Made by a program: the position numbers and the translations under genes
Notes under the pieces: generated by a model
What the model was told of the DNA's origin: nothing
What the model saw: the letters and a program-made list of their open reading frames with translations, nothing else
The model's database searches: none
Shown: piece after piece, positions 8,610 through 17,722 of the stretch
Numbering within the stretch: position 1 is the first letter of the stretch
How the letters are laid out: each line of letters opens with the position of its first letter
Virus record (IMG/VR): IMGVR_UViG_2695420708_000013
Coordinates: 1 to 17,722 of that record
Direction: 5' to 3' (one strand)
Origin: a virus
Lineage: Duplodnaviria; Heunggongvirae; Uroviricota; Caudoviricetes
DNA: 17,722 nucleotides

Positions 8610-8855
8610 TTTCTAGGCTTCCACCACCAGCACGACAAGATGCCGCATACAGTGACCCAGTCAGTCCAGTTTTCAGACAACCAGTGCGTCACCTTTTTGA
8701 AGGCGCTTTAAAGCACGTTTTAATCCAGGTCGGCCTGTCCTTGTTCCGCTTAATTTATCTTCAAATATTTGTTCATATCCTGCACAAACAAGAGCGTTTC
8801 GTTGCAGGTCTGTATTCTGGTCATTTGTTGATACCCTTACATAGCCAATCAGCAC
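8610..8855 (-). pseudogene. Decayed second copy of the serine invertase (N-terminal ~60 codons intact, then stops)
   Basis: ORF 8673..8873 encodes LIGYVRVSTNDQNTDLQRNALVCAGYEQIFEDKLSGTRTGRPGLKRALKRLQKGDALVV then TGA; further downstream reads KLD*LGHCMRHLVVLVVEA*, recognisably related to KLDRLGRSMKHLISLVGEL of the intact copy. Confidence 0.7.
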
Positions 8856-8961
8856 GCTGAATCTCCCGTCCAAAAGCGCAAATCATGCCATGCAGGCCGG
8901 AAACGGCCATTATCTAAAACCTCGGTTTACAGGAAACGGTAAACAAGGCTGGTAACGCCGT
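8666..8961. repeat. Direct repeat copy B (~296 bp) of the invertase 5' end plus crossover site
   Basis: See copy A; same orientation. Confidence 0.85.
8910..8935. other. Invertase crossover site, copy R1 (boundary of the invertible fibre segment)
   Basis: Identical 26-mer to 7711..7736; the alternative fibre reading frame runs straight through it (..[12 protein letters not shown]..). Confidence 0.78.
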
Positions 8962-9823
8962 TCAGCGTTCCGGCGATAAAATGACCGGAGAACTGAAAAT
9001 TGGCACGGTGAATGCGCTGCGAATTTTCAATGATACCTTCGGTCTAATTTTCCGTCGTTCAGAAGATTTTCTTCATTTCATTCCGACGGCTGAAGGACAA
9101 GGCGAAAACGGTAATATCGGCCCATTAAGGCCATTCGCTATAAATCTGAGAACAGGTGCTATATCTGTCAGCCACGGGGCCAAAATTAAAGGAGGTCTAG
9201 CTATTGGAGCTACTGATAACGCACTGGGTGAAAACTCCATTGTTCTGGGAGATAACGACACCGGATTTAGGCAAGATGGAGATGGTATTATTAGCTTCTA
9301 TTCAAATGGTTCGCGCATCGGACATATTGATGAGTTAGGATTACATCTTTATAAAGATATTGAATCTAATGGCAGCAATTTTAGATTAAAAAGTAATTAC
9401 CGCCACCACATTACATTCGCCAACGAAGACGGAAGAATTCGTATGTTTTTGTGGAAAGATAACGGTGGTGATGGTGTTCATATTAATAACGGTTCAGATG
9501 GTGGTGGTGATTTCATTTTTAAAACAGATGGGGGATTTGCGCTGGGAAGTGGTGCGCAAGTTGCGTCTAGTGGCGATATTTATGGTTCAGTGTGGGAAAA
9601 CAACTGGTTAAGCACATGGCTGCATAATCATGTCGTTCGGGATATTCGTCTTGGCAGCATTGAATATAAAAACGTATGGCGCGACTACGGCTTTGGCGAT
9701 GCGTCAGGTTATGTTTTAACAGCCGCAATTAACAGCAATGCGGATGATATTGTCGACACTGTTGCCAGAAGGCCAATTCAGAAATTGATTGGGGGAATAT
9801 GGTACAACGTGGGGAGTGTTTAA
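8936..9823 (+). CDS. Alternative tail-fibre C-terminal cassette (Hv'), silent in this orientation
   Basis: Frame is open from the crossover site ([20 protein letters not shown], then the ORF-track start M at 8981); no SD of its own; ends ...[15 protein letters not shown] like P2 gpH; Gly-rich beta-rich body typical of fibre tips. Confidence 0.75.
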
Positions 9824-9824
9824 G

Positions 9825-10352
9825 ATGATGCACCTGAAAAATATTAAGGCCGGGAATCCGAAAACACCGGAACAATACCAGCTAACTAAAAAAGCGGGCG
9901 TGGTATGGCTCTTTTGCGAAGATGGCAAAAACTGGTATGAGGAACAAAAGAATTTTCAGCCAGACACCATAAAAATTGCTTACGATGAGAACAACATCAT
10001 CGTTGCTGTCAGTAAAGACGTTTCAACTATTAATCCTGAAGGGCTAAGCATAGTTGAAGTTCCTGATATTACGGCAAATCGTCACGCAGACAATAACGGA
10101 AAATGGATGTTTCTGGATGGTAAAGTAGTAAAGAGGGAATATACAGAACAGGAACTGCAACAACAGGCCGAATCACAAAAGGCCGCATTGCTTTCCGAAG
10201 CTGAATCAGTCATCCAGCCGCTGGAACGCGCTGTCAGGCTGAATATGGCAACAGACGAGGAACGCACACGACTGGAAGCATGGGAACGCTACAGTGTTCT
10301 GGTCAGCCGTGTGGATACGGCAAATCCTGAATGGCCACAAAAGCCTGAATAA
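9825..10352 (+). CDS. Alternative tail-fibre assembly chaperone (gpG/Tfa-like), partner of Hv'
   Basis: Starts [14 protein letters not shown] 1 nt after the Hv' stop, with GGGGAG SD; paralogous to the opposite-strand tfa ([14 protein letters not shown]...PEQPE). ORF-track start 9789 is an upstream extension. Confidence 0.85.
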
Positions 10353-10357
10353 AAATT

Positions 10358-10377
10358 AAGGCCCGATAGCGGGCCTT
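10358..10377. terminator. Bidirectional hairpin between the two convergent fibre-assembly genes
   Basis: GGCCCG-ATAG-CGGGCC stem-loop flanked by A/T runs on both sides. Confidence 0.5.
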
Positions 10378-10380
10378 CTC

Positions 10381-10914
10381 TCATTCTGGTTGTTCGGGAA
10401 ACGTTACTGGCAGGCTGGAGGTGTCTGTGGATTCGACCTTCTGCGCATAGAGCATCCACTCGGTTAATTTTTGTTTATTCTCATCGGAAATGATGCCCAG
10501 CTGTAGCTGAGAGTCCCACAGCTGGGTTTTATCCCTGACGAGCTGCAGCAGGCTCTGCTTTTCATTTTCCGCTTGTTGCCTTTGCTCTTCCTCGGTATAA
10601 GTTCGCTTTATCACCGCACCATCTTTGAACATCCAGTTGCCCGAAATATCAGCCCGGCGATTTGCTGTAATATCAGGCAACTCAACGACACTTAAACCTT
10701 CTGGATTAATTGCTGATACATCCTTGTCTATAGCAATAATTATTCCCTCAACTGTGTAAGCCAGTTTTATTGTATCCTCCTGAAAGTTTTTTAATTCCTC
10801 ATGCCAATTTTTTCCATCTTCGGACCATAACCAGATAACATCAAAATTCTTTGTTAGCTGGTATTGTTCAACGGTTTTTGGATTACCTGCGACAATGTTT
10901 TTTAAATGCTGCAT
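10381..10914 (-). CDS. G: Tail-fibre assembly chaperone (P2 gpG-like), partner of the currently expressed fibre tip
   Basis: 177-aa ORF; N-terminal 100 aa conserved with the + strand paralog, C-terminal half divergent, as expected for fibre-specific chaperones. Confidence 0.88.
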
Positions 10915-10916
10915 GA

Positions 10917-11066
10917 TTATACCTGCGATACGTTATACCATGTTCCGTTAATTAACTTTTGTATTGGTCTGAATACTGCCGGATCATCACCATCGACTTC
11001 ACCGATAATACCAAGCCCCGTGATTACATGGCCTGATTTTTCATACATCACGCCTTTCTTCATGGT
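10917..11066 (-). other. Orphaned last 50 codons of the expressed fibre gene, separated from it by an in-frame TAG
   Basis: Reverse-complement translation in H frame: [49 protein letters not shown], matching the conserved P2 gpH C-terminal end as I recall it; stop TAA 2 nt before the tfa ATG. Confidence 0.65.
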
Positions 11067-12857
11067 CTAAACAACTCGTGTGCCAAGTCTGACATCTCTC
11101 ACATAGCGGGAATCAAAGTTACCGTAATCCGAGGGATTAACACGTCCCGTAATATTTATGGTTTTATTACTTTGAATGCTTCCGGAGACAAAGCGCATAA
11201 CATGGACGTTATTAGCATAAACATCCAGATTACCATCGCCTTTTTGTTTAAAGCCCGTGTCATTATCACCCAATACAATCGAATTACCGCCAAGAGCACT
11301 GGATGTTCCGATACCCAGTGCACCATTCAGTTGACCACCAGATAACGGCAGTGCACCAACATCTCCTGCTGAAGGTTTTCTGGTGGTGTAAAATTCGGAC
11401 CAGTCGGCTTCAAAACCATAACCATCACGGGCTGAACGATAAAAAATACCGCCATTTTTATAATTAATCCGAAACTGAGCTGCAGGACAACTTCCTTCTC
11501 CCATATAAAAATGAATAATTAACGTTGATGCACCACTAATAGTTGCGTTATAGGCTCCGCTACTCCAGTTCCATCCAACTGCTTTATCATTCGCAACGGT
11601 GCTTCCTGTTTTCCCTAAGGCAAACGCACCAACATGACTTGCTTTTAATGTGATATCGGAGGAACCATCAAAAGCCACATTGCTTATTTTCCTGGCAGTT
11701 TTTAATTTTGCAGCTGTAGAAGCATTGCCGGATAGTTCACCAGAAAGGCCACCGCTGAATGTTTGTCGATTAGTCCAGGTATTCGCTGTACTGAGTAACG
11801 GTATTTTCTCCCCGCTTGTGCCGAGTTCTCGTAAACCGAGGTATTCGATAACGGCAGCAACGGTCGATTTCGCAAGAATATCCCGCCCGACTTTTGTCAG
11901 GGTTGCCAGGCTGGCGACATCATTCCCCGTAAAATACGGAAACTTGCCTGCCGCAGTAGTAAGTCCGGCCAGCGCCGTCAGGGTGGCATCTTTCGGTTGC
12001 TTACCCGCAAGCGCGTTAGTCATGGTGGTCGCAAAATTCGGGTCGTTGCCCAGCGCCGCCGCCAGCTCGTTCAGTGTGTTCAGTGCATCAGGCGAAGAGT
12101 CTACAAGTGCGGCAATCGCAGCCATAACGAAAGCCGTGCTTGCGATTTGGGTATTATTCGTTCCCTGTCGCGCAGTTGGTGTTGTTGGCGTTCCGGTCAG
12201 TGCAGGACTATTTAAGGGCGCTTTCTTGTTCGTTTCACCCATTACCGCCTTAACCGCTTTTGGCGTTGCCGCCAGTGACTCGGAAGTGCTGTTGGTCGCA
12301 CTGCTGAGCTGTACTATCCCCTTTTTCGTCGTGCTCGCATCCTCCAGCGCCACGGCGGATGCAATATCCTCTGCCCGTTTTGCTGCTGTCTCGGCGCGCG
12401 TTGCCGCGGATTCAGCAGCAACTTTGCTCTGAGATGCAGCCGTCGCACTGCCTGCCGCCTCTGATGCTTTCGTTGTTGCTGTCGTGGCACTACCTTTCGC
12501 TGCTGACGCTTGTCTGGTCGCCTCATCTTTTGAAGCAGACGCAGATGATGCCGATGACGCCGCTGAACTGGCTGACGATGCGGCTGCTGCCTTAGAGGAA
12601 GCAGCATTGTCTGCTGAAGTCTTTGCATTTGTTTCAGAGGTTTTTGCTGCAGAAGCAGACCTCGCTGCTGCAGTGGCTTGCTCAGTGGCTTTGCCAGCCT
12701 TCGTTGTGGCTGTTGAAGCGGATGATGCGGCGCTTTCTGCCGATTTTCCGGCGGCGGTGGCACTGGCTGAGGCCTGCCCGGCACTTGTTGACGCGGCACT
12801 GGCAGATAATGCAGCCGCTGTTTTTGAACCTGCCGCAGAGTGGCATCTTTCGGTTGC
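11067..12857 (-). CDS. H: Tail fibre gpH-like, Ala/Ser/Thr-rich middle region plus variable C-terminal part (frame B)
   Basis: My own translation shows this frame open from 12857 to the TAG at 11067, reading Ala-rich repeats (..AAKTSETNAKTSADNAASSKAAAASS..) into KAPLNSPALTGTPTTPTARQGT...IEYLGLRELGTSGEK... The ORF track only reports it from an internal GTG at 12353. Confidence 0.7.
   Translation of the reverse strand, partial: ATERCHSAAGSKTAAALSASAASTSAGQASASATAAGKSAESAASSASTATTKAGKATEQATAAARSASAAKTSETNAKTSADNAASSKAAAASSASSAASSASSASASKDEATRQASAAKGSATTATTKASEAAGSATAASQSKVAAESAATRAETAAKRAEDIASAVALEDASTTKKGIVQLSSATNSTSESLAATPKAVKAVMGETNKKAPLNSPALTGTPTTPTARQGTNNTQIASTAFVMAAIAALVDSSPDALNTLNELAAALGNDPNFATTMTNALAGKQPKDATLTALAGLTTAAGKFPYFTGNDVASLATLTKVGRDILAKSTVAAVIEYLGLRELGTSGEKIPLLSTANTWTNRQTFSGGLSGELSGNASTAAKLKTARKISNVAFDGSSDITLKASHVGAFALGKTGSTVANDKAVGWNWSSGAYNATISGASTLIIHFYMGEGSCPAAQFRINYKNGGIFYRSARDGYGFEADWSEFYTTRKPSAGDVGALPLSGGQLNGALGIGTSSALGGNSIVLGDNDTGFKQKGDGNLDVYANNVHVMRFVSGSIQSNKTINITGRVNPSDYGNFDSRYVRDVRLGTRVV
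11826..11851. other. Invertase crossover site L, inverted relative to 7711 and 8910, inside gene H
   Basis: TTCTCGTAAACC-GA-GGTATTCGATAA; core GA is the complement of TC; encodes IEYLGLRE at the constant/variable junction of H. Confidence 0.78.
11983..12345. repeat. Internal direct repeat in H, copy 2 (~0.36 kb)
   Basis: Aligns to 12840..13200 at offset 857; both copies encode KAPLNSPALTGTPTTPTARQGTNNTQIASTAFVMAAIAALVDSSPDALNTLNELAAALGNDPNFATTMTNALAGKQPKDATL. Confidence 0.8.
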
Positions 12858-13708
12858 TTACCCGCAAGCGCGTTAGTCATGGTGGTCGCAAAATTCGGGT
12901 CGTTGCCCAGCGCCGCAGCCAGCTCGTTCAGCGTGTTCAGTGCATCAGGTGACGAATCTACAAGGGCGGCAATCGCAGCCATAACGAAAGCCGTGCTTGC
13001 GATTTGGGTATTATTCGTTCCCTGTCGCGCAGTTGGTGTTGTTGGCGTTCCGGTCAGTGCCGGGCTGTTTAATGGGGCTTTCTTGTTCGTTTCATCCATT
13101 ACTGCCTTAACGGCTTTTGGTGTCGCTGCCAGCGTTTCAGACGTGCTGTTGGTGGCGTTGCTGAGCTGGACAAGGCCTTTTGCGGTCAGCGAGGCGTCCG
13201 GGTGACGTCGTGACTGTTCATGCTCTTTCAGTTTGTCATCCACGTAATTCACTGTGGCCATCACCATGGTGTTATCCACGGTAAGCGCCACAGTGGCAGT
13301 GCTGGATACGGTCAGAATGGTGCGAAATGTTTGTGCACGTCCGGATCCTTCGGCAACGGTTGGCTTGTAACTTTCGGCAGTATTGCCTACCGCGATCAAA
13401 TCGCCGTGCTCATCAAACACACCAATTTCCCGGATCCAGAATCCGCCCGTTTCAGGAGGAATAACCAGCTCCGCAATAATGTGGTTCTGATGTGTTGCGT
13501 CCAGGGTGACGCGATTAACGGTATGTCGCCACACCTCATGCACAAGACGGGTCTGCTTACTGTCTGGCGTGGGTAAAGTACCGCCGCCGTCACCCACGGC
13601 CATATGTGTCAGGCGGACAGGTTTCCCATCTGGCGCGGTTGCCTGCGCTAATTTTTTTGCACCCGTATCGGTGATAATGGTTTTAAATTTTCGTGTTGTG
13701 GTACTCAT
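12836..13708 (-). CDS. H: Tail fibre gpH-like, N-terminal conserved part (frame A)
   Basis: MSTTTRKFKTIITDTGAKKLAQA...ELVIPPETGGFW...HEQSRRHPDASLTAKG... resembles P2 gpH N-terminus. After ...KQPKDATL the same frame continues as Gln/Arg/Pro-rich text to 12314, which I interpret as out-of-frame. Confidence 0.8.
12840..13200. repeat. Internal direct repeat in H, copy 1
   Basis: See copy 2. Confidence 0.8.
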
Positions 13709-13710
13709 GC

Positions 13711-14241
13711 TTAATCGTCCGGATAAATGGTAATGACTTCACCGTCGTAAGTTGCTGCTGCCGCGAAAATATCTCCCTGAATCTCCTGAATGATATTCAG
13801 CCCTGTCATGTGGCGGCTGACCGGGCGGGCATCAGCAATCAACCGCTCCATTTCCAGATACATTTCCTCCGTCACGCCACTGTCCAGCGTGCCAACATCA
13901 ATCTTGAATGTTCCGGGTTCGCCGTTGAACTCCCACCACTCAGACACGCGAATGAGGTATCCCAGCGGCTCAATGGCCCGTCGCAGGGCGCTGATGGTTC
14001 CTTTGTGTCGGTGTATCAGCCATGCATCACGAATCACCTGTCGCTTTGTCTCTTCCGGCCAGTTGCGATCCCAGCGGTCAACGGAAAACGCCCAGGCGAG
14101 ATAAGGCAGCAGATGCACCGGGCAGGTGTCCGGCGACCACAGCGTGTTGAGGTCTGCCGGAATGTCTGTAATGCGTGTTCCGACGGCTTCGGCACAACGC
14201 ATGAAATTGCTGGCTGATGGTGGTAACAGTGAATTACTCAT
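13711..14241 (-). CDS. I: Baseplate protein gpI-like
   Basis: WSPDTCPVHLLPYLAWAFSVDRWD and EMERLIADARPVSRH motifs; start ATG 14239-14241 (MSNSLLPP) just upstream of the J stop; ORF-track start 14274 is an extension. Confidence 0.87.
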   Translation of the reverse strand: MSNSLLPPSASNFMRCAEAVGTRITDIPADLNTLWSPDTCPVHLLPYLAWAFSVDRWDRNWPEETKRQVIRDAWLIHRHKGTISALRRAIEPLGYLIRVSEWWEFNGEPGTFKIDVGTLDSGVTEEMYLEMERLIADARPVSRHMTGLNIIQEIQGDIFAAAATYDGEVITIYPDD

Positions 14242-15130
14242 TACGCCCACCTTCGCTGATGGTGAATGACTCACAGCGCGCCGCCTGTATGTCGCTGATG
14301 GCCATATTCTGTGTGGGTTCGATTATCTCCACGCGTTGCACACCGTGCACATGCAGTGCGGCAGCAATGGCGGACAACGCCACGTCCTGACCGATAAGCC
14401 CCTGCTCAGCCAGCCACTTCCTGAACGACGATTCAGCCGCAGCCAGAATAGGTTCGGATTCCGGACCGGGGTAAAAGTACAGTTTTGCATTCAGCCGCCA
14501 TGTCACGATTCTGGCACTCTGTACGGTCAGGCGGTCGGCCACCGGGCGGGTATCCTCTGCATTCAGAACGGCGCGAACGGTATTAAGCAACGCCTCCGTT
14601 GCTGTGCCGTCGCCCTCAGTGGACAGGATGGAAACCGTCACATTTGCCGGAGACGGACTGATGGCCCGCGCATCGCGCACCAGACCGCTGGCGCTGCGGG
14701 CAAAATACTCGTATGCGCCTGACGGGCCTGCAACACTCAGGCCGTCATACGCCCGCTGCGCCCGCAGTCTCAGCGAGGTGTCGTTCTCCATCACCACGTC
14801 GGTGGTATCCGTTGCCGGAGTGATAACCAGGCGCTTTGTGTTCATATTGCCCGCGAGGTTGTCCAGGTCTGTTCCGGCGCTGTGGCTCAACATGCAGGCG
14901 CGTGCGGCCTCATTGACCCGCTGGCGTAACAGCATTTCACGAAACGACATGGTTTGAGCGATAACGTTCAGGGGTTCCGATTCCAGTTCCAGTGCGGCGG
15001 AGACGACTTCACGCTGTTCGGCGGGATAAGCTGCAATCATCATGGCCTTTGTGTCAGCCAGAATTGCCTCAAAGTCAGGCTCCGCGATGATGGCGGGTTC
15101 CGGTAACTGGGAAAGGTCAACGGCAGGCAT
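14234..15130 (-). CDS. J: Baseplate protein gpJ-like
   Basis: 298 aa, MPAVDLSQLPEP... N-terminus and RPVADRLTVQSA / YFYPGPESEPI motifs as in P2 gpJ. Confidence 0.9.
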   Translation of the reverse strand: MPAVDLSQLPEPAIIAEPDFEAILADTKAMMIAAYPAEQREVVSAALELESEPLNVIAQTMSFREMLLRQRVNEAARACMLSHSAGTDLDNLAGNMNTKRLVITPATDTTDVVMENDTSLRLRAQRAYDGLSVAGPSGAYEYFARSASGLVRDARAISPSPANVTVSILSTEGDGTATEALLNTVRAVLNAEDTRPVADRLTVQSARIVTWRLNAKLYFYPGPESEPILAAAESSFRKWLAEQGLIGQDVALSAIAAALHVHGVQRVEIIEPTQNMAISDIQAARCESFTISEGGRNE

Positions 15131-15133
15131 GAT

Positions 15134-15484
15134 TTACTCCCTCAGCGTGATGGTTAATTCAACATTCTGCATGGTCTGCATGACAGTGCCCGACAGCGTC
15201 ACCCCGGCGTGGCCTCCTGCCTTCCAGACAACGTCGATGGCGTTCAGGGCAATGCGTGGTTCCCATCGTGTCAGTGCAATCACGGTAGCACTCATGCATT
15301 GCAGACGCGTGGTGTTATTCATGGGTTCGTCAATCAAATCAGGCACAAGGCTGCCATATTCCCGTCGCATAACCCGGCTTGCCAGCGGGGTGGTCAGGAT
15401 GTCCCTGACTGACTGTTTCAGGTGCGCCATATCGTTCAGGTTTCCCGTCCCGTCCGGGTTCATTCCTGTGTAGCGGGTTGTCAC
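15134..15484 (-). CDS. W: Baseplate wedge protein gpW-like
   Basis: 116 aa, MTTRYTGMN..., gp25/W-like; overlaps gene V stop. Confidence 0.87.
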   Translation of the reverse strand: MTTRYTGMNPDGTGNLNDMAHLKQSVRDILTTPLASRVMRREYGSLVPDLIDEPMNNTTRLQCMSATVIALTRWEPRIALNAIDVVWKAGGHAGVTLSGTVMQTMQNVELTITLRE

Positions 15485-16062
15485 TGCGGGCCTCCTGTCG
15501 AATCGCTGCCACCTTTAACGCCACCGTGCTTATGCGTATGCACTGTGATGCCGTTTGAGGTGAAATCGCCGCCGCTGTGCGTGATATTGCCGCTCATCGT
15601 TCCCCCTTTTGTGACGTCAAGCGTCGCTGTTCTCAGAAGGTCTGTGCATTCCACGACAGGCGTGTTCAGTGTCACGCTGATGGATGCCTGCAAAGTGGCC
15701 GTTTTCATGCCGCTTGCGCTCAGTGCGCCTGCGTCCGCGTCGTAGCGGAACACCGCGCCGTCCGGCGCGCTGACCACGATTTCTTTCAGGCTTTTGCCGG
15801 GTGCCGGAATGGCATCACTCCACAGGCTGCCGATTATCATGGCGGTTTCCGGGTTGCCGCCGATGCAGGCAATTGCCACCTGTTCGCCTGGTGATGGCGG
15901 AAACCACACGTTGAAGTCTCCCGCGCGCGTGGTGTTCCAGCGCAGCCAGCCTGTTTCCAGTTCGCCGCTGCGAACGCGCACGCACCAGGATTCCTCATCA
16001 ACTTCAGAGATGATCCCGGTGCGGATGATATTGCTCAGCAGTCGCATGAGTTCTGCGCTCAT
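15481..16062 (-). CDS. V: Baseplate spike/assembly protein gpV-like
   Basis: 193 aa; C-terminal GGTMSGNITHSGGDFTSNGITVHTHKHGG motif characteristic of P2 gpV. Confidence 0.87.
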   Translation of the reverse strand: MSAELMRLLSNIIRTGIISEVDEESWCVRVRSGELETGWLRWNTTRAGDFNVWFPPSPGEQVAIACIGGNPETAMIIGSLWSDAIPAPGKSLKEIVVSAPDGAVFRYDADAGALSASGMKTATLQASISVTLNTPVVECTDLLRTATLDVTKGGTMSGNITHSGGDFTSNGITVHTHKHGGVKGGSDSTGGPQ

Positions 16063-16694
16063 CGTACAGCCTCCGCAATCCGGCCCAGCACCGTGTTATA
16101 AATCAGGCGCTCATCTGCCTGGCTGATACCCAGCAGCTCACGTACCGGGTAATCGGTGAAAATGCCCGGCGCAACCTGATCGCGCTCACCGAACTGATGA
16201 ACGCGTGCAATACGTGCGGCCACGCCGCTGTAACCCACCGTCACACCGGAAGCATCTGCACGGGCTTTCAGGTAGCGGGCGGTGCGCAGTTTTACGAACA
16301 TGGAGACGCGCCTGGTGCTGTCCTGGTTGATGCGCCGGGTGCGTATTTCCAGAAAACGGTCGATGTCATCCCGGTAAAACGTGCGGATATTGTTTTTATC
16401 CTCATCCCACCCGGTGATGGTTCGCCCGTATTTCCCCGTGTCGTGATGCCAGTTTTTCAGCGTGCGTGCTTCGTTATTCCAGATAAAGCGAATGCGCTCC
16501 TGTATCCGGGTTACGCGGCGTCTGCGTGGTGTCCATGCGGTCCCGTCCGGCGCTTTCTGTGACCGGATACGCGCCTGCTGGGCGCGGCGTAAATCCTGTG
16601 CCAGCTTTCTGGCGATGTTATTAATGGCCTGCTGATTCAGGCTGTCGCGGATAGCCTCAAAGGTTTCATCCACGCGGGTGAATGCCTTATCCAT
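16059..16694 (-). CDS. S: Tail completion / virion morphogenesis protein, gpS-like with an internal insertion
   Basis: C-terminal ARIARVHQFGERD...RELLGIS motif of the gpS family; about 60 residues longer than P2 gpS as I recall it. Confidence 0.7.
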   Translation of the reverse strand: MDKAFTRVDETFEAIRDSLNQQAINNIARKLAQDLRRAQQARIRSQKAPDGTAWTPRRRRVTRIQERIRFIWNNEARTLKNWHHDTGKYGRTITGWDEDKNNIRTFYRDDIDRFLEIRTRRINQDSTRRVSMFVKLRTARYLKARADASGVTVGYSGVAARIARVHQFGERDQVAPGIFTDYPVRELLGISQADERLIYNTVLGRIAEAVR

Positions 16695-17154
16695 CGCTTT
16701 CCCCCCACGTCACATCCTGGAATACATGCGACCAGTCGCCTTCGGAAGAGGGCAGGCGGGGTTTTGGCTCCGGCAGGTGTTCTGCCTGCGGTGTGCCCTG
16801 ACTGCTGCGCGTGATGCGAACGCGTTCCCGCAGGGGGAGCGTAAACAGGAGATCGGCGCTGTCATCGTCATTGATAACGGCGGAAAATTTGATGTCCTGA
16901 TTACGCTCCGGATTGAGCAACAACTGTGGCTGATTTTCGGATAACCACGCCAGCAGCGGCAGCGTGAGGTCGTCCAGCTCTCCGGCGTAATCCATGACAA
17001 ACATCACTATCTGATAGCGGTAAACAAACGATGGGGTTTCTCCGGTCGTTTCAATGTTGCCGCTCTCCACGAAAATGGTGAATTTTTCCGGGTTGGCATG
17101 ACACCACCGGCATGAACGGGTCATGGCTTCACGCAGGGAATCAGTTTTCAGCAT
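16687..17154 (-). CDS. R: Tail completion protein gpR-like
   Basis: 155 aa, MLKTDSLREAM... resembles P2 gpR; 4-nt overlap arrangement with neighbours. Confidence 0.85.
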   Translation of the reverse strand: MLKTDSLREAMTRSCRWCHANPEKFTIFVESGNIETTGETPSFVYRYQIVMFVMDYAGELDDLTLPLLAWLSENQPQLLLNPERNQDIKFSAVINDDDSADLLFTLPLRERVRITRSSQGTPQAEHLPEPKPRLPSSEGDWSHVFQDVTWGESDG

Positions 17155-17431
17155 GGTTGTTGTCCTCGTTGTTCAGTCGTTGCAGCCTGCGCTGTTCCAG
17201 TAATTCAATGGCCCGCTTATCGGCGTTACAGGTTTCCAGTGCGTCCATGAGGCTGTCGCTCCATATCCCGATGTTTCCCCATGATGGCGTCACCGGAAAC
17301 GGCGGGGGAAGTACGGGGGCGGTCAGCCCTTCCGGGATGAAACGGAACGACGGCGGCGGCGCGGACGCGTTCTGCGTGCTGGTGCAACCGCTCAGTAAAG
17401 CGAGCGTCAGGAACAGCGCGGGCACATGCAT
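17141..17431 (-). CDS. lysC: Rz1-like outer-membrane lipoprotein spanin (P2 LysC-like)
   Basis: Starts MHVPALFLTLALLSGC (signal peptide plus lipobox LSGC), Pro-rich mature part; begins inside lysB in another frame and runs past its end. ORF-track start 17461 is an extension. Confidence 0.6.
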   Translation of the reverse strand: MHVPALFLTLALLSGCTSTQNASAPPPSFRFIPEGLTAPVLPPPFPVTPSWGNIGIWSDSLMDALETCNADKRAIELLEQRRLQRLNNEDNNHAEN

Positions 17432-17678
17432 CTGTCGTGATATCGTTGCGTAGCTGTTCACGTCGGATTTCCCCTTCCTGTTGTCGGTTCTGGCGCGCTG
17501 TCATGACGTCACGCAGTACACCGGATGCGGTGCTGATGATGGTGCCGGCCTCTTTCAGGGTCCGGCTGTAATCGTCCAGTTGCGCCTGTGTATAACGGTT
17601 GTGTCCGTCTTCCTGCCCCAGTCTGAATGTCTGCCAGAGTGTTATGGTCAGCAGCGTGAGGACGGTCAGTGCCATCAT
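17226..17678 (-). CDS. lysB: Rz-like inner-membrane spanin (P2 LysB-like)
   Basis: N-terminal hydrophobic segment ALTVLTLLTITLW followed by charged, helix-prone periplasmic region; overlaps the lipoprotein ORF. Confidence 0.62.
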   Translation of the reverse strand: MMALTVLTLLTITLWQTFRLGQEDGHNRYTQAQLDDYSRTLKEAGTIISTASGVLRDVMTARQNRQQEGEIRREQLRNDITTDACARAVPDARFTERLHQHAERVRAAAVVPFHPGRADRPRTSPAVSGDAIMGKHRDMERQPHGRTGNL

Positions 17679-17722
17679 CAGGATGAGGTAGCCTGAGTTT
17701 AACGGACACTCCTTCCTGAAAT

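Follow-up and report, generated by a model that had tools for sequence, protein, structure and literature searches.

A tail-fibre frame break that probably marks the seam of a chimeric Shigella sonnei prophage contig

The window, i.e. the whole stretch of 17,722 nucleotides analysed here, is contig CXAP01000091.1 in the Shigella sonnei short-read draft assembly GCA_001260795.1. Two parts of it, 1-7762 and 12836-17722, belong to a P88/P2-like prophage and match, at 99.8-100% identity, an E. coli prophage whose H tail-fibre gene (678 aa) is intact; they flank 5076 nt that are colinear with the resident defective lambdoid prophage of S. sonnei (Table 1). P2 gpH-type fibres are encoded directly after gene I and attach to the baseplate through a PF12571 domain. 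The H gene of the window likewise lies directly after a Tail_P2_I gene and encodes PF12571, the N-terminal collar-fibre domain, at residues 6-152 (E = 5.5e-55), followed at residues 173-213 by PF03406, the first copy of a conserved fibre-repeat domain. Its first 291 residues match those of the complete H (678 aa) in E. coli FDAARGOS_943; the 873 nt concerned differ at 6 positions. Intact relatives of H are 656-764 aa long. A gpH-type fibre is read in a single continuous frame from its N-terminal domain through to the receptor-binding end; this frame is interrupted here by a switch at 12836-12838 and by a TAG at 11069-11067.

The original prediction described H text in frame A that passes into low-complexity Gln/Arg/Pro-rich text, a TAA just upstream in frame B, and a shift between the two frames somewhere within 12836-12857. 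All of this is borne out, and the switch can be placed to the base. The minus-strand ORF 13708..12314 (464 aa) reads as a P2/P88-type H N-terminus to ...NALAGKQPKDATL and then as RQVQKQRLHYLPVPRQQ...; the H text in frame A ends in ...KQPKDATL, its last residue being Leu291, encoded by the CTG at 12838-12836. What follows is an out-of-frame reading of an Ala-rich shaft, whose −1 frame (a stop, then ATERCHSAAGSKTAAALSASAAS...) is the proximal shaft text of the NCTC86 Stf and has no stop between the TAA at 12860-12858 and the TAG at 11069-11067. A scan of the −1 frame found no ATG, GTG or TTG start codon before the GTG at 12353. An intact H would continue as ...GATGCCACTCTG joined to ACGGCGCTGG..., with the text ...CTGACGGCGCTGG...; the H of FDAARGOS_943 continues as ...GCCACTCTGACGGCGCTGGCGGGG..., and the stf continuation is GCCTCAGCTGCGGCAGG. 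The frame break is present in the deposited sequence, whose annotation lists CSN65174.1, a ‘tail fiber protein’ of 464 aa, with a partner of 428 aa. In a protein collection look-up, the 464-aa product was found on a single contig, the window itself. Ten junction-spanning or flanking products were also looked up, and the absence of all nine junction-spanning candidates among them is uninformative; protein J is widespread (1311 blocks of the collection).

Downstream of the break, the shaft segment begins within Stf codon 294 of the 934-aa NCTC86 homologue and shares 99-100% nucleotide identity with NCTC86 stf and with the S. sonnei resident prophage. Only the last ~170 codons of the Stf shaft are there: the phage_tail_N domain and long Ala-rich shaft that characterise the N-terminal part of a lambdoid side tail fibre are missing, and the Stf N-terminus is absent from the whole window, with the H N-terminus in its place. 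The distal part of Stf (hinge, distal domain and receptor-binding end) is followed by tfa, as is characteristic of lambdoid side tail fibres; aligned with NCTC86 stf-tfa over 2542 positions, it shows 25 differences, one of them a 3-nt gap (99.0% identity). The distal fibre carries PF03406 and PF12604, with a Caudo_TAP gene downstream. It ends at a TAG where relatives have CAG, and loses its last 49 residues. This amber codon is inherited: the identical 428-aa product occurs on 15 contigs of the collection, and seven of the eight places shown are the resident lambdoid prophage in other S. sonnei genomes. The tract as a whole (stf shaft, distal fibre, tfa, inverted tfa, alternative fibre end, crossover site, pin fragment and methyltransferase) has the same gene order as in the resident S. 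sonnei prophage and aligns to CP041511 with no gaps and 14 mismatches, 12 of them in three repeat-associated clusters.

Table 1. Features of the window that bear on the frame break
Feature	Position	Strand	Basis or remark
H 5′ part, frame A, residues 1-291	12836..13708	-	Translation; Pfam; FDAARGOS_943 match
Six-SNP patch in copy 1, stf alleles	12917..12965		Differences from FDAARGOS_943 H and from seven S. sonnei/NCTC86 stf copies; identical runs
TAA closing frame B just upstream of joint	12858..12860	-	Reading-frame analysis
Left joint, CTG common to H and stf	12836..12838	-	Three-way comparison of window, FDAARGOS_943 H and NCTC86 stf
Ala/Ser/Thr-rich coiled-coil shaft of lambdoid side tail fibre, frame B	12315..12838	-	Nucleotide identity to stf
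Frame-A read-through, 173 Gln/Arg/Pro-rich nonsense codons and stop	12314..12835	-	Translation
Tract colinear with resident S. sonnei lambdoid prophage at trp locus, 5076 nt	7763..12838	-	Comparison with CP041511
Distal-fibre ORF, 428 aa, GTG start	11067..12353	-	Translation
Second (stf-type) copy of conserved fibre domain, partner of 12836-13135	11979..12278	-	Repeat search; PF03406
Invertible host-range segment	8917..11844		Inverted crossover sites 8917-8928 (+) and 11833-11844 (-)
Second blunt joint, P88-like side onto sequence upstream of methyltransferase	7762..7763		Three-way alignment
Direct repeat, 297 nt, partner 8665-8961	7466..7762	+	Invertase 5′ end, gix-like crossover site, 31 nt beyond
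Third crossover site	7718-7729		Adjoins invertase gene 7069-7656 (-)

At the left joint, similarity to H stops at 12836 and similarity to stf begins at 12838, so that only the CTG is common to both. This triplet is the last H codon and at the same time supplies the first three bases of the stf tract. There it falls on codon positions 2-3-1, and a join at this point necessarily shifts the frame. The base at 12839, 1 nt before the CTG, is a T, the H-specific allele. BLAST places the boundaries at 12832/12838, its H match reaching 12832 with one 1-nt gap at 12836. At the right joint, 0-1 nt are common to the two sides, compared with 3 nt on the left; the P88-like side contributes the invertase (supported by a homology match and Pfam Resolvase/HTH_7), a crossover site and 31 nt of an alternative fibre gene. 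Neither joint was found in the complete E. coli genomes: the left one is absent from all 5426 (86-nt and 1341-nt queries) and the right one likewise from the n=5426 set. A wider pattern search for the left joint, in frame or out (GATGCCACNCTGN{0,25}CGGCAGGTTCAAAAAC), returned no matches in GTDB species representatives, JGI metagenomes or IMG/VR.

Each seam has a further property in common: the flank ends in a repeat whose diverged second copy sits 857 or 1199 nt inside the middle tract. The 857-bp offset had already been given in the original prediction and corresponds to a single direct-repeat family (11979-12278 and 12836-13135, 300 nt, 93% identical), a pair far beyond chance. It was taken there to be consistent with unequal recombination involving a duplicated unit within a single gene. 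That origin does not hold: the two copies differ in ancestry, one being P88-like H and the other resident stf, they are only 93% alike, and the H-specific T at 12839 adjoins the joint, all of which speaks against a tandem duplication by unequal crossing-over within one gene. From the alignments, the parentage on each side of the seams is resolved to the base.

The alleles within the repeats are distributed in an unusual way. Copy 1 differs from FDAARGOS_943 H at just six positions over 873 nt, and these are the six SNPs of the patch listed in Table 1, while the partner patch in copy 2, at 12060-12108, carries the H alleles. The swap is reciprocal, lies 80-130 nt from the break and is bounded by runs of 95 nt and 77 nt that are identical in both copies; if the six SNPs are un-swapped, copy 1 becomes identical to FDAARGOS_943 H and copy 2 to S. 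sonnei stf. Recombination does not normally yield such a two-way exchange of patches between direct repeats on one molecule, whereas mis-phasing over the 95/77-nt runs does. Allele mixing is also seen at the second, 297-nt repeat, where both copies mix the alleles of the two parents and the last at least 123 nt are identical.

Taken as a whole, these observations favour a frame break that is the seam of a chimeric contig, i.e. a false join made during scaffolding or gap extension rather than a mutation inside one gene; we put the probability of this reading at roughly 0.6. The assembler would have been blocked at the repeats, where the copies agree fully over stretches of 77, 95 and at least 123 nt next to the seams. 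These stretches, together with k=31 Logan contigs of the prophage that stop at 7335, suggest that the contig was then built by scaffolding and greedy gap extension. Since the repeat copies differ by SNPs, the two extension fronts may have passed one another without being recognised as overlapping and would then have been butted together, producing what looks like a tandem duplication and, in two cases out of three, a shifted frame. The real H would then be unbroken at 12836, with either its own distal part or one common with the lambdoid prophage. Five sibling S. sonnei drafts have N-marked scaffold joins in the same zones: their contig fronts begin within the Ala-rich shaft, at stf coordinates 1942-2240 (1873 in the window), and stop inside the conserved domain or shortly beyond it, at 2629-2880 (2732 being the equivalent in the window), and close to the methyltransferase, at 6500-6936 (6996 in the window). 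Odd stf structures in other S. sonnei drafts were also considered as real rearrangements or as products of invertase quasi-sites, an explanation that was set aside because the joins are N-marked scaffold gaps. For a Sanger assembly pipeline that accounts for 299 public S. sonnei assemblies, its authors report 4-10 misassemblies per test genome and describe SSPACE and GapFiller as greedy tools that can make false joins (PMC5320598). The contig probably came from this pipeline.

Several points count against a false join. The window contains no N bases, although sibling scaffolds keep N at such joins. We know of no documented assembly step that butts contigs without N at an overlap of only 3 nt. 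Known scaffolding tools (SSPACE and GapFiller at their defaults) merge contigs only at an overlap of at least 10 nt, and a merge of this kind was rejected as the source of the seam: the longest seam match is 3 nt, and the 9-nt match 25 nt downstream gives another sequence. Moreover, the H-specific T at 12839 requires an H-stf k-mer in the reads unless the two sides were joined post-assembly, and it is not obvious how read pairs would connect the H domain, at its end, with the beginning of the Ala-rich tract.

A real chimera is possible, if rather unlikely. Here, a P88-like host-range cassette (distal H, tfa genes and alternative fibre end) would have been replaced by 5.1 kb of the resident lambdoid prophage, the joints having arisen by illegitimate microhomology-mediated recombination, e.g. 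template switching in break-induced replication, such that H codon 291 was fused out of frame and the fibre gene killed whichever way the invertible segment is turned. A microhomology of 3 nt is what one expects of an illegitimate joint, and the junction sequence is continuous, without an N, and carries the H-specific allele next to the CTG. The prophage is also decaying: gene D carries a TGG to TAG (amber) change that is confirmed by two independent Logan assemblies, SRR1814246 and ERR024605, whose contigs of the same prophage cover 14-7335 and 14-4187; because of this amber, nothing functional would be expected on induction even if the joint were real. Exchange of tail-fibre modules between P2-like and lambdoid phages, including uptake of stf/tfa from defective prophages, is documented (PMC3945230). 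Yet a single event would have to make two blunt illegitimate joints, the two breakpoints in the donor lie within the zones of the sibling contig fronts (a coincidence of a few percent if unrelated), and the reciprocal SNP swap nearby shows that the stretch was not read-resolved. In addition, a copied 5-kb tract, if a real second copy, would be expected to have broken a short-read contig at its ends, and the joint is found nowhere else in E. coli genomes, GTDB, JGI, IMG/VR or the protein collection. The original prediction allowed for either a real lesion that makes the gene a pseudogene or a sequence error in a region rich in repeats. The evidence leans towards the error, with a genuine illegitimate H x stf recombination as the possible form of the lesion. 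The frame break itself is ordinary whichever origin applies, artefact or real.

Improbable, by comparison, is an in-frame H-stf hybrid that formed first, by a crossover in the common CGGC (...KDATLTAGSKTAAA...) or the 9-nt CTGCGGCAG, and was broken later, whether through loss of 1 nt (A) or 25 nt or through a sequencing error at one base. The 1-nt gap with which BLAST extends H across the joint would suit such a history, as would the CTGCGGCAG that occurs 25 nt further on in H and is read there in the frame it has in stf, but two events are invoked where one suffices, the missing A lies outside any homopolymer and is unlikely as an Illumina indel error, and no in-frame version with 0-25 intervening bases turned up in GTDB, JGI metagenomes or IMG/VR. 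A functional break, be it a programmed −1 ribosomal frameshift, transcriptional slippage or a pair of separate working subunits, is scarcely credible: the shift required is indeed −1, and past the joint frame A runs on for 173 codons, but this tail is simply GCN-rich DNA read out of frame, the overlap 12857-12314 has no slippery X_XXY_YYZ heptamer in the zero frame (the only one lies outside it, at 13658) and no homopolymers longer than A5, the intact 934-aa homologue, 99% identical in nucleotides, reads straight through, and frame B lacks a start codon for 168 codons while the distal ORF lacks any baseplate-attachment domain, which also disposes of two separate functional genes.

If the frame break is a false join, the annotated structure of CSN65174.1 and its partner probably does not exist, and tail-fibre duplications or frameshifts in scaffolded short-read prophages need read support before they are called pseudogenes. 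If it is real instead, 5.1 kb from a co-resident lambdoid prophage took the place of a 3.3-kb host-range cassette of the P2-like prophage, a modest example of an out-of-frame joint between unrelated phage types that was kept only because the prophage was already defective. In Hendrix's model of phage mosaicism, illegitimate joints are said to be random and mostly lethal, and to be rarely seen since selection removes them; a real joint would be a direct snapshot of such an event.

Among known systems, the window resembles false joins from short-read scaffolding and gap filling with SSPACE/GapFiller (PMC5320598), with which it shares repeats longer than reads, seams at the repeat copies, mis-phased alleles and sibling assemblies mis-scaffolded at the same genes; its own seams differ in being without N and in having 0-3 nt in common. 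The stf gene of lambda PaPa (Hendrix and Duda 1992, as recounted in PMC12617516 and PMC3945230) is likewise split in the shaft into two ORFs and gives no fibre. That split is described there as a verified frameshift within one gene, whereas the break in the window is a joint between two genes and probably not real. Mosaic tail-fibre genes of P2, lambda, Mu, P1 and T-even phages also have the conserved H/Stf fibre-repeat domain and distal parts in common (Haggard-Ljungquist et al. 1992, Sandmeier 1994, PMC3945230). As in such mosaics, a P2-type N-terminus adjoins distal sequence of lambdoid type in the window. The known mosaics are in-frame and functional, with joints in or beside the common sequence; in the window, the common domain is duplicated and the joint is out of frame. 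Finally, as in the Gin/Cin/Pin/Min systems (Mu G, P1 C and e14 P segments), the window combines a serine invertase with gix-like sites (AAACCTCGGTTT), opposed tfa genes and an alternative fibre C-terminus, but the frame break lies not at a crossover site but ~1 kb upstream of the invertible segment, in the constant part of the fibre gene.

Translation together with a repeat search bears out what the original prediction had described: a reading-frame break in the tail-fibre gene H, a TAA beside it and a duplication offset by 857 nt. The -1 frame follows this TAA (12860-12858) with ATERCHSAAGSKTAAALSASAAS..., continues through the rest of the tail fibre and stops at a TAG (11069-11067). It holds no ATG, GTG or TTG start upstream of the GTG at 12353, which is why gene callers give a 428-aa ORF. 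The duplication is the single direct-repeat family found, with copy 1 at 12836-13135 and copy 2 at 11979-12278 (300 nt, 93% identity, spacing 857). The 464-aa product of the H frame occurs in one record only, contig CXAP01000091.1 of assembly GCA_001260795.1, and NCBI names this protein a tail fiber protein of Shigella sonnei.

The window covers that entire 17,722-bp contig and represents the tail module of a prophage of P88-like type (Xuanwuvirus, P2-like), with genes D, FI, FII, E, T, U, a DNA invertase, an invertible fibre segment, H, I, J, W, V, S and R. The two repeat copies descend from different parents: matches to P2-like phages are confined to the sequence upstream of the break and those to lambdoid side-tail-fibre (stf) genes to the sequence downstream. 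On the H side, the E. coli FDAARGOS_943 prophage matches 12832-17685 at 99.8% identity, and its intact H (678 aa) shares residues 1-291 with the window. On the stf side, 12838 to 10300 differs from the lambdoid stf-tfa region of E. coli NCTC86 at 25 of 2542 aligned positions, including one 3-nt gap, and the Ala-rich text corresponds to Stf's proximal coiled-coil shaft, known from Ur-lambda (PMC12617516). The NCTC86 stf is an unbroken 934-aa ORF; RefSeq (NZ_CP019778, 1593992-1596796) splits it into a pseudogene truncated at the C-terminus and an in-frame 'tail fiber protein' that overlaps this pseudogene, despite its single uninterrupted run of 934 codons.

At the left seam, H reads ...GATGCCACTCTG/ACGGCGCTGG, stf reads ...GCCTCAGCTG/CGGCAGGTTC and the window reads ...GATGCCACTCTGCGGCAGGTTC. 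The only sequence common to H and stf here is CTG, and since it forms one codon in H and codon positions 2-3-1 in stf, the junction is out of frame by construction.

The middle tract derives from the resident S. sonnei prophage. The exact 428-aa ORF, premature TAG included, is found on 15 contigs in the collection; seven of the eight places shown are other S. sonnei assemblies, among them the complete chromosome CP041511, and there the host element is a defective lambdoid prophage adjoining the trp operon. Window positions 12838-7763 (5076 nt) align to this prophage with 14 mismatches and no gaps, and both share the order shaft, distal fibre, 48-aa remnant, tfa, inverted tfa, 280-aa alternative fibre end, crossover site, pin fragment and class I methyltransferase. 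The tract ends at a second blunt joint (7762/7763), beyond which lie 31 nt of alternative fibre gene, a gix-like crossover site and an intact P88-type invertase. Ahead of this joint stands a 297-nt direct repeat (7466-7762 and 8665-8961), identical over at least its final 123 nt. The window is thus made up of a P88-like stretch, 5.1 kb of lambdoid prophage and a second P88-like stretch. Either flank stops, at its seam, inside a repeat whose diverged partner lies 857 or 1199 nt within the middle tract.

Features of the window and contig fronts near the stf locus (fronts in coordinates of the NCTC86 stf locus, L005, with the window's seam position under Position)
Feature	Position	Strand	Remark
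Serine invertase	7069-7656		Gin/Pin-type module
gix-like site AAACCTCGGTTT	7718-7729, 8917-8928, 11833-11844		in-fibre-gene site inverted, 1 mismatch
Methyltransferase cassette, class I SAM-dependent, 222 aa	7806-8474	+	between both 297-nt repeat copies
Alternative fibre C-terminus and two opposed tail-fibre-assembly genes	8981-9823; 9825-10349; 10384-10914		
Fibre ORF, 464 aa	13708..12314	-	opens as P2/P88-type H, reads ...NDPNFATTMTNALAGKQPKDATL, then Gln/Arg/Pro-rich to stop
Front starting in Ala-rich shaft	1873		sibling drafts 1942-2240
Front ending in or just past conserved domain	2732 (equivalent)		sibling drafts 2629-2880
Front ending beside methyltransferase	6996		sibling drafts 6500-6936

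We favour a false join as the source of the break, with a probability of roughly 0.6. Over 873 nt, the window H differs from that of FDAARGOS_943 at six positions, all within 12917-12965, and copy 2 differs from every S. sonnei or NCTC86 stf at the six homologous positions (12060-12108); at all six, the copies hold each other's allele. This patch is bordered by runs of 95 and 77 nt that are identical between the copies. Recombination does not normally yield a reciprocal patch exchange between direct repeats; an assembler does so when unable to phase a bubble. The second repeat shows P88-type alleles at 8878, 8899 and 8905 in copy 8665-8961 and a lambdoid allele at 7504 in copy 7466-7762, and 12 of the 14 tract mismatches fall in three repeat-associated clusters. 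Logan (k=31) assemblies of the same prophage from two runs (SRR1814246 and ERR024605) match the window perfectly and end at 7335 and 4187, meaning that a repeat starts before the right seam.

In five other S. sonnei drafts (FT... accessions), the locus consists of scaffolds with overlapping, misordered contigs joined by one or more N; their contig fronts are compared with the window in the table. At loci L011-L016 of these drafts (FTYZ, FTYB, FTXT, FTTQ, FTXX), two overlapping stf contigs enclose a methyltransferase contig in inverted orientation, with one N or a run of N at the joins, and the apparent stf duplications and rearrangements there are scaffolding products. The same methyltransferase cassette is multi-copy, lying at lambdoid prophage ends in many E. 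coli beside ompT or tfa fragments, and probably adds to the assembly problems. According to the paper on a Sanger pipeline that yielded 299 public S. sonnei assemblies, SSPACE and GapFiller are greedy and able to make false joins, and 4-10 misassemblies were counted per test genome (PMC5320598); this contig may well originate from that pipeline. Neither joint occurs in any of 5426 complete E. coli genomes, and GTDB representatives, JGI metagenomes and IMG/VR gave no match to the left one when 0-25 bases were permitted in between.

Less probable, yet the leading rival, is a real replacement of the cassette out of frame. The window is free of N, and an H-specific T at 12839 stands 1 nt ahead of the shared CTG, so that reads would have to contain the junction, unless it arose only after assembly. 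Only 3 nt are common at the left seam, whereas the contig-merging tools known to us require an overlap of at least 10 nt; microhomology of about 3 nt suits a real joint, being typical of illegitimate recombination. The prophage is also clearly decaying (gene D TGG to TAG at 928-926, in both Logan assemblies), and defective prophages are a known source of stf/tfa DNA for phages (PMC3945230). Against this, two blunt illegitimate joints would have to form simultaneously, both donor breakpoints would have to lie by chance in zones of sibling contig fronts, and the assembler would have had to cross a tract which, if copied, would exist twice. The false join demands only an unexplained loss of N at two joins. 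An in-frame hybrid that later lost its frame to a deletion (1 or 25 nt) or an error is improbable. Highly improbable is a functional frameshift or an arrangement of two genes, given A5 runs only, no slippery heptamer and no start codon.

No new kind of biological feature is present here; among true cases of a side-tail-fibre gene split by a frame change, lambda PaPa stf comes closest. Restoring the frame would still leave the fibre 49 residues short owing to an inherited amber codon: a CAG-to-TAG change (11067-11069, minus strand) removes its last residues (TMKKGVMYEKSGHVITGLGIIGEVDGDD...), and since other S. sonnei genomes carry the identical truncated ORF in their resident lambdoid prophage, this TAG is older than the contig. 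The Gin/Pin-type host-range inversion module is complete. Because the break lies upstream of the inverted sites 8917-8928 and 11833-11844, both segment orientations would be affected.

Gene D (late control/tail protein, 369 codons; 194-1300) has an in-frame TAG at 926-928 (minus strand), a codon that is TGG (Trp125) in phage P88 and in the FDAARGOS_943 prophage. Its presence in two independent Logan assemblies makes the nonsense mutation real and the prophage defective, which thus lacks a full gene D whichever reading of the break holds.

Relative to the FDAARGOS_943 prophage, identity is ~96% over 180-6022 (D, sheath, tube, E and most of the tape-measure gene) and 99.8-100% from ~6022 on (6022-7751 and 12832-17685), with a 6-nt indel cluster at 5997-6004; the jump at ~6022 marks a mosaic boundary within the tape-measure gene. 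Finally, TTTTTTG occurs at 3520-3526 (plus strand) inside E (3209-3574), near an overlapping ORF (3502-3738), at what we take to be the position of the programmed -1 frameshift of P2-family phages (E+E', tail chaperone gene); this motif is about as frequent in the window as chance predicts.
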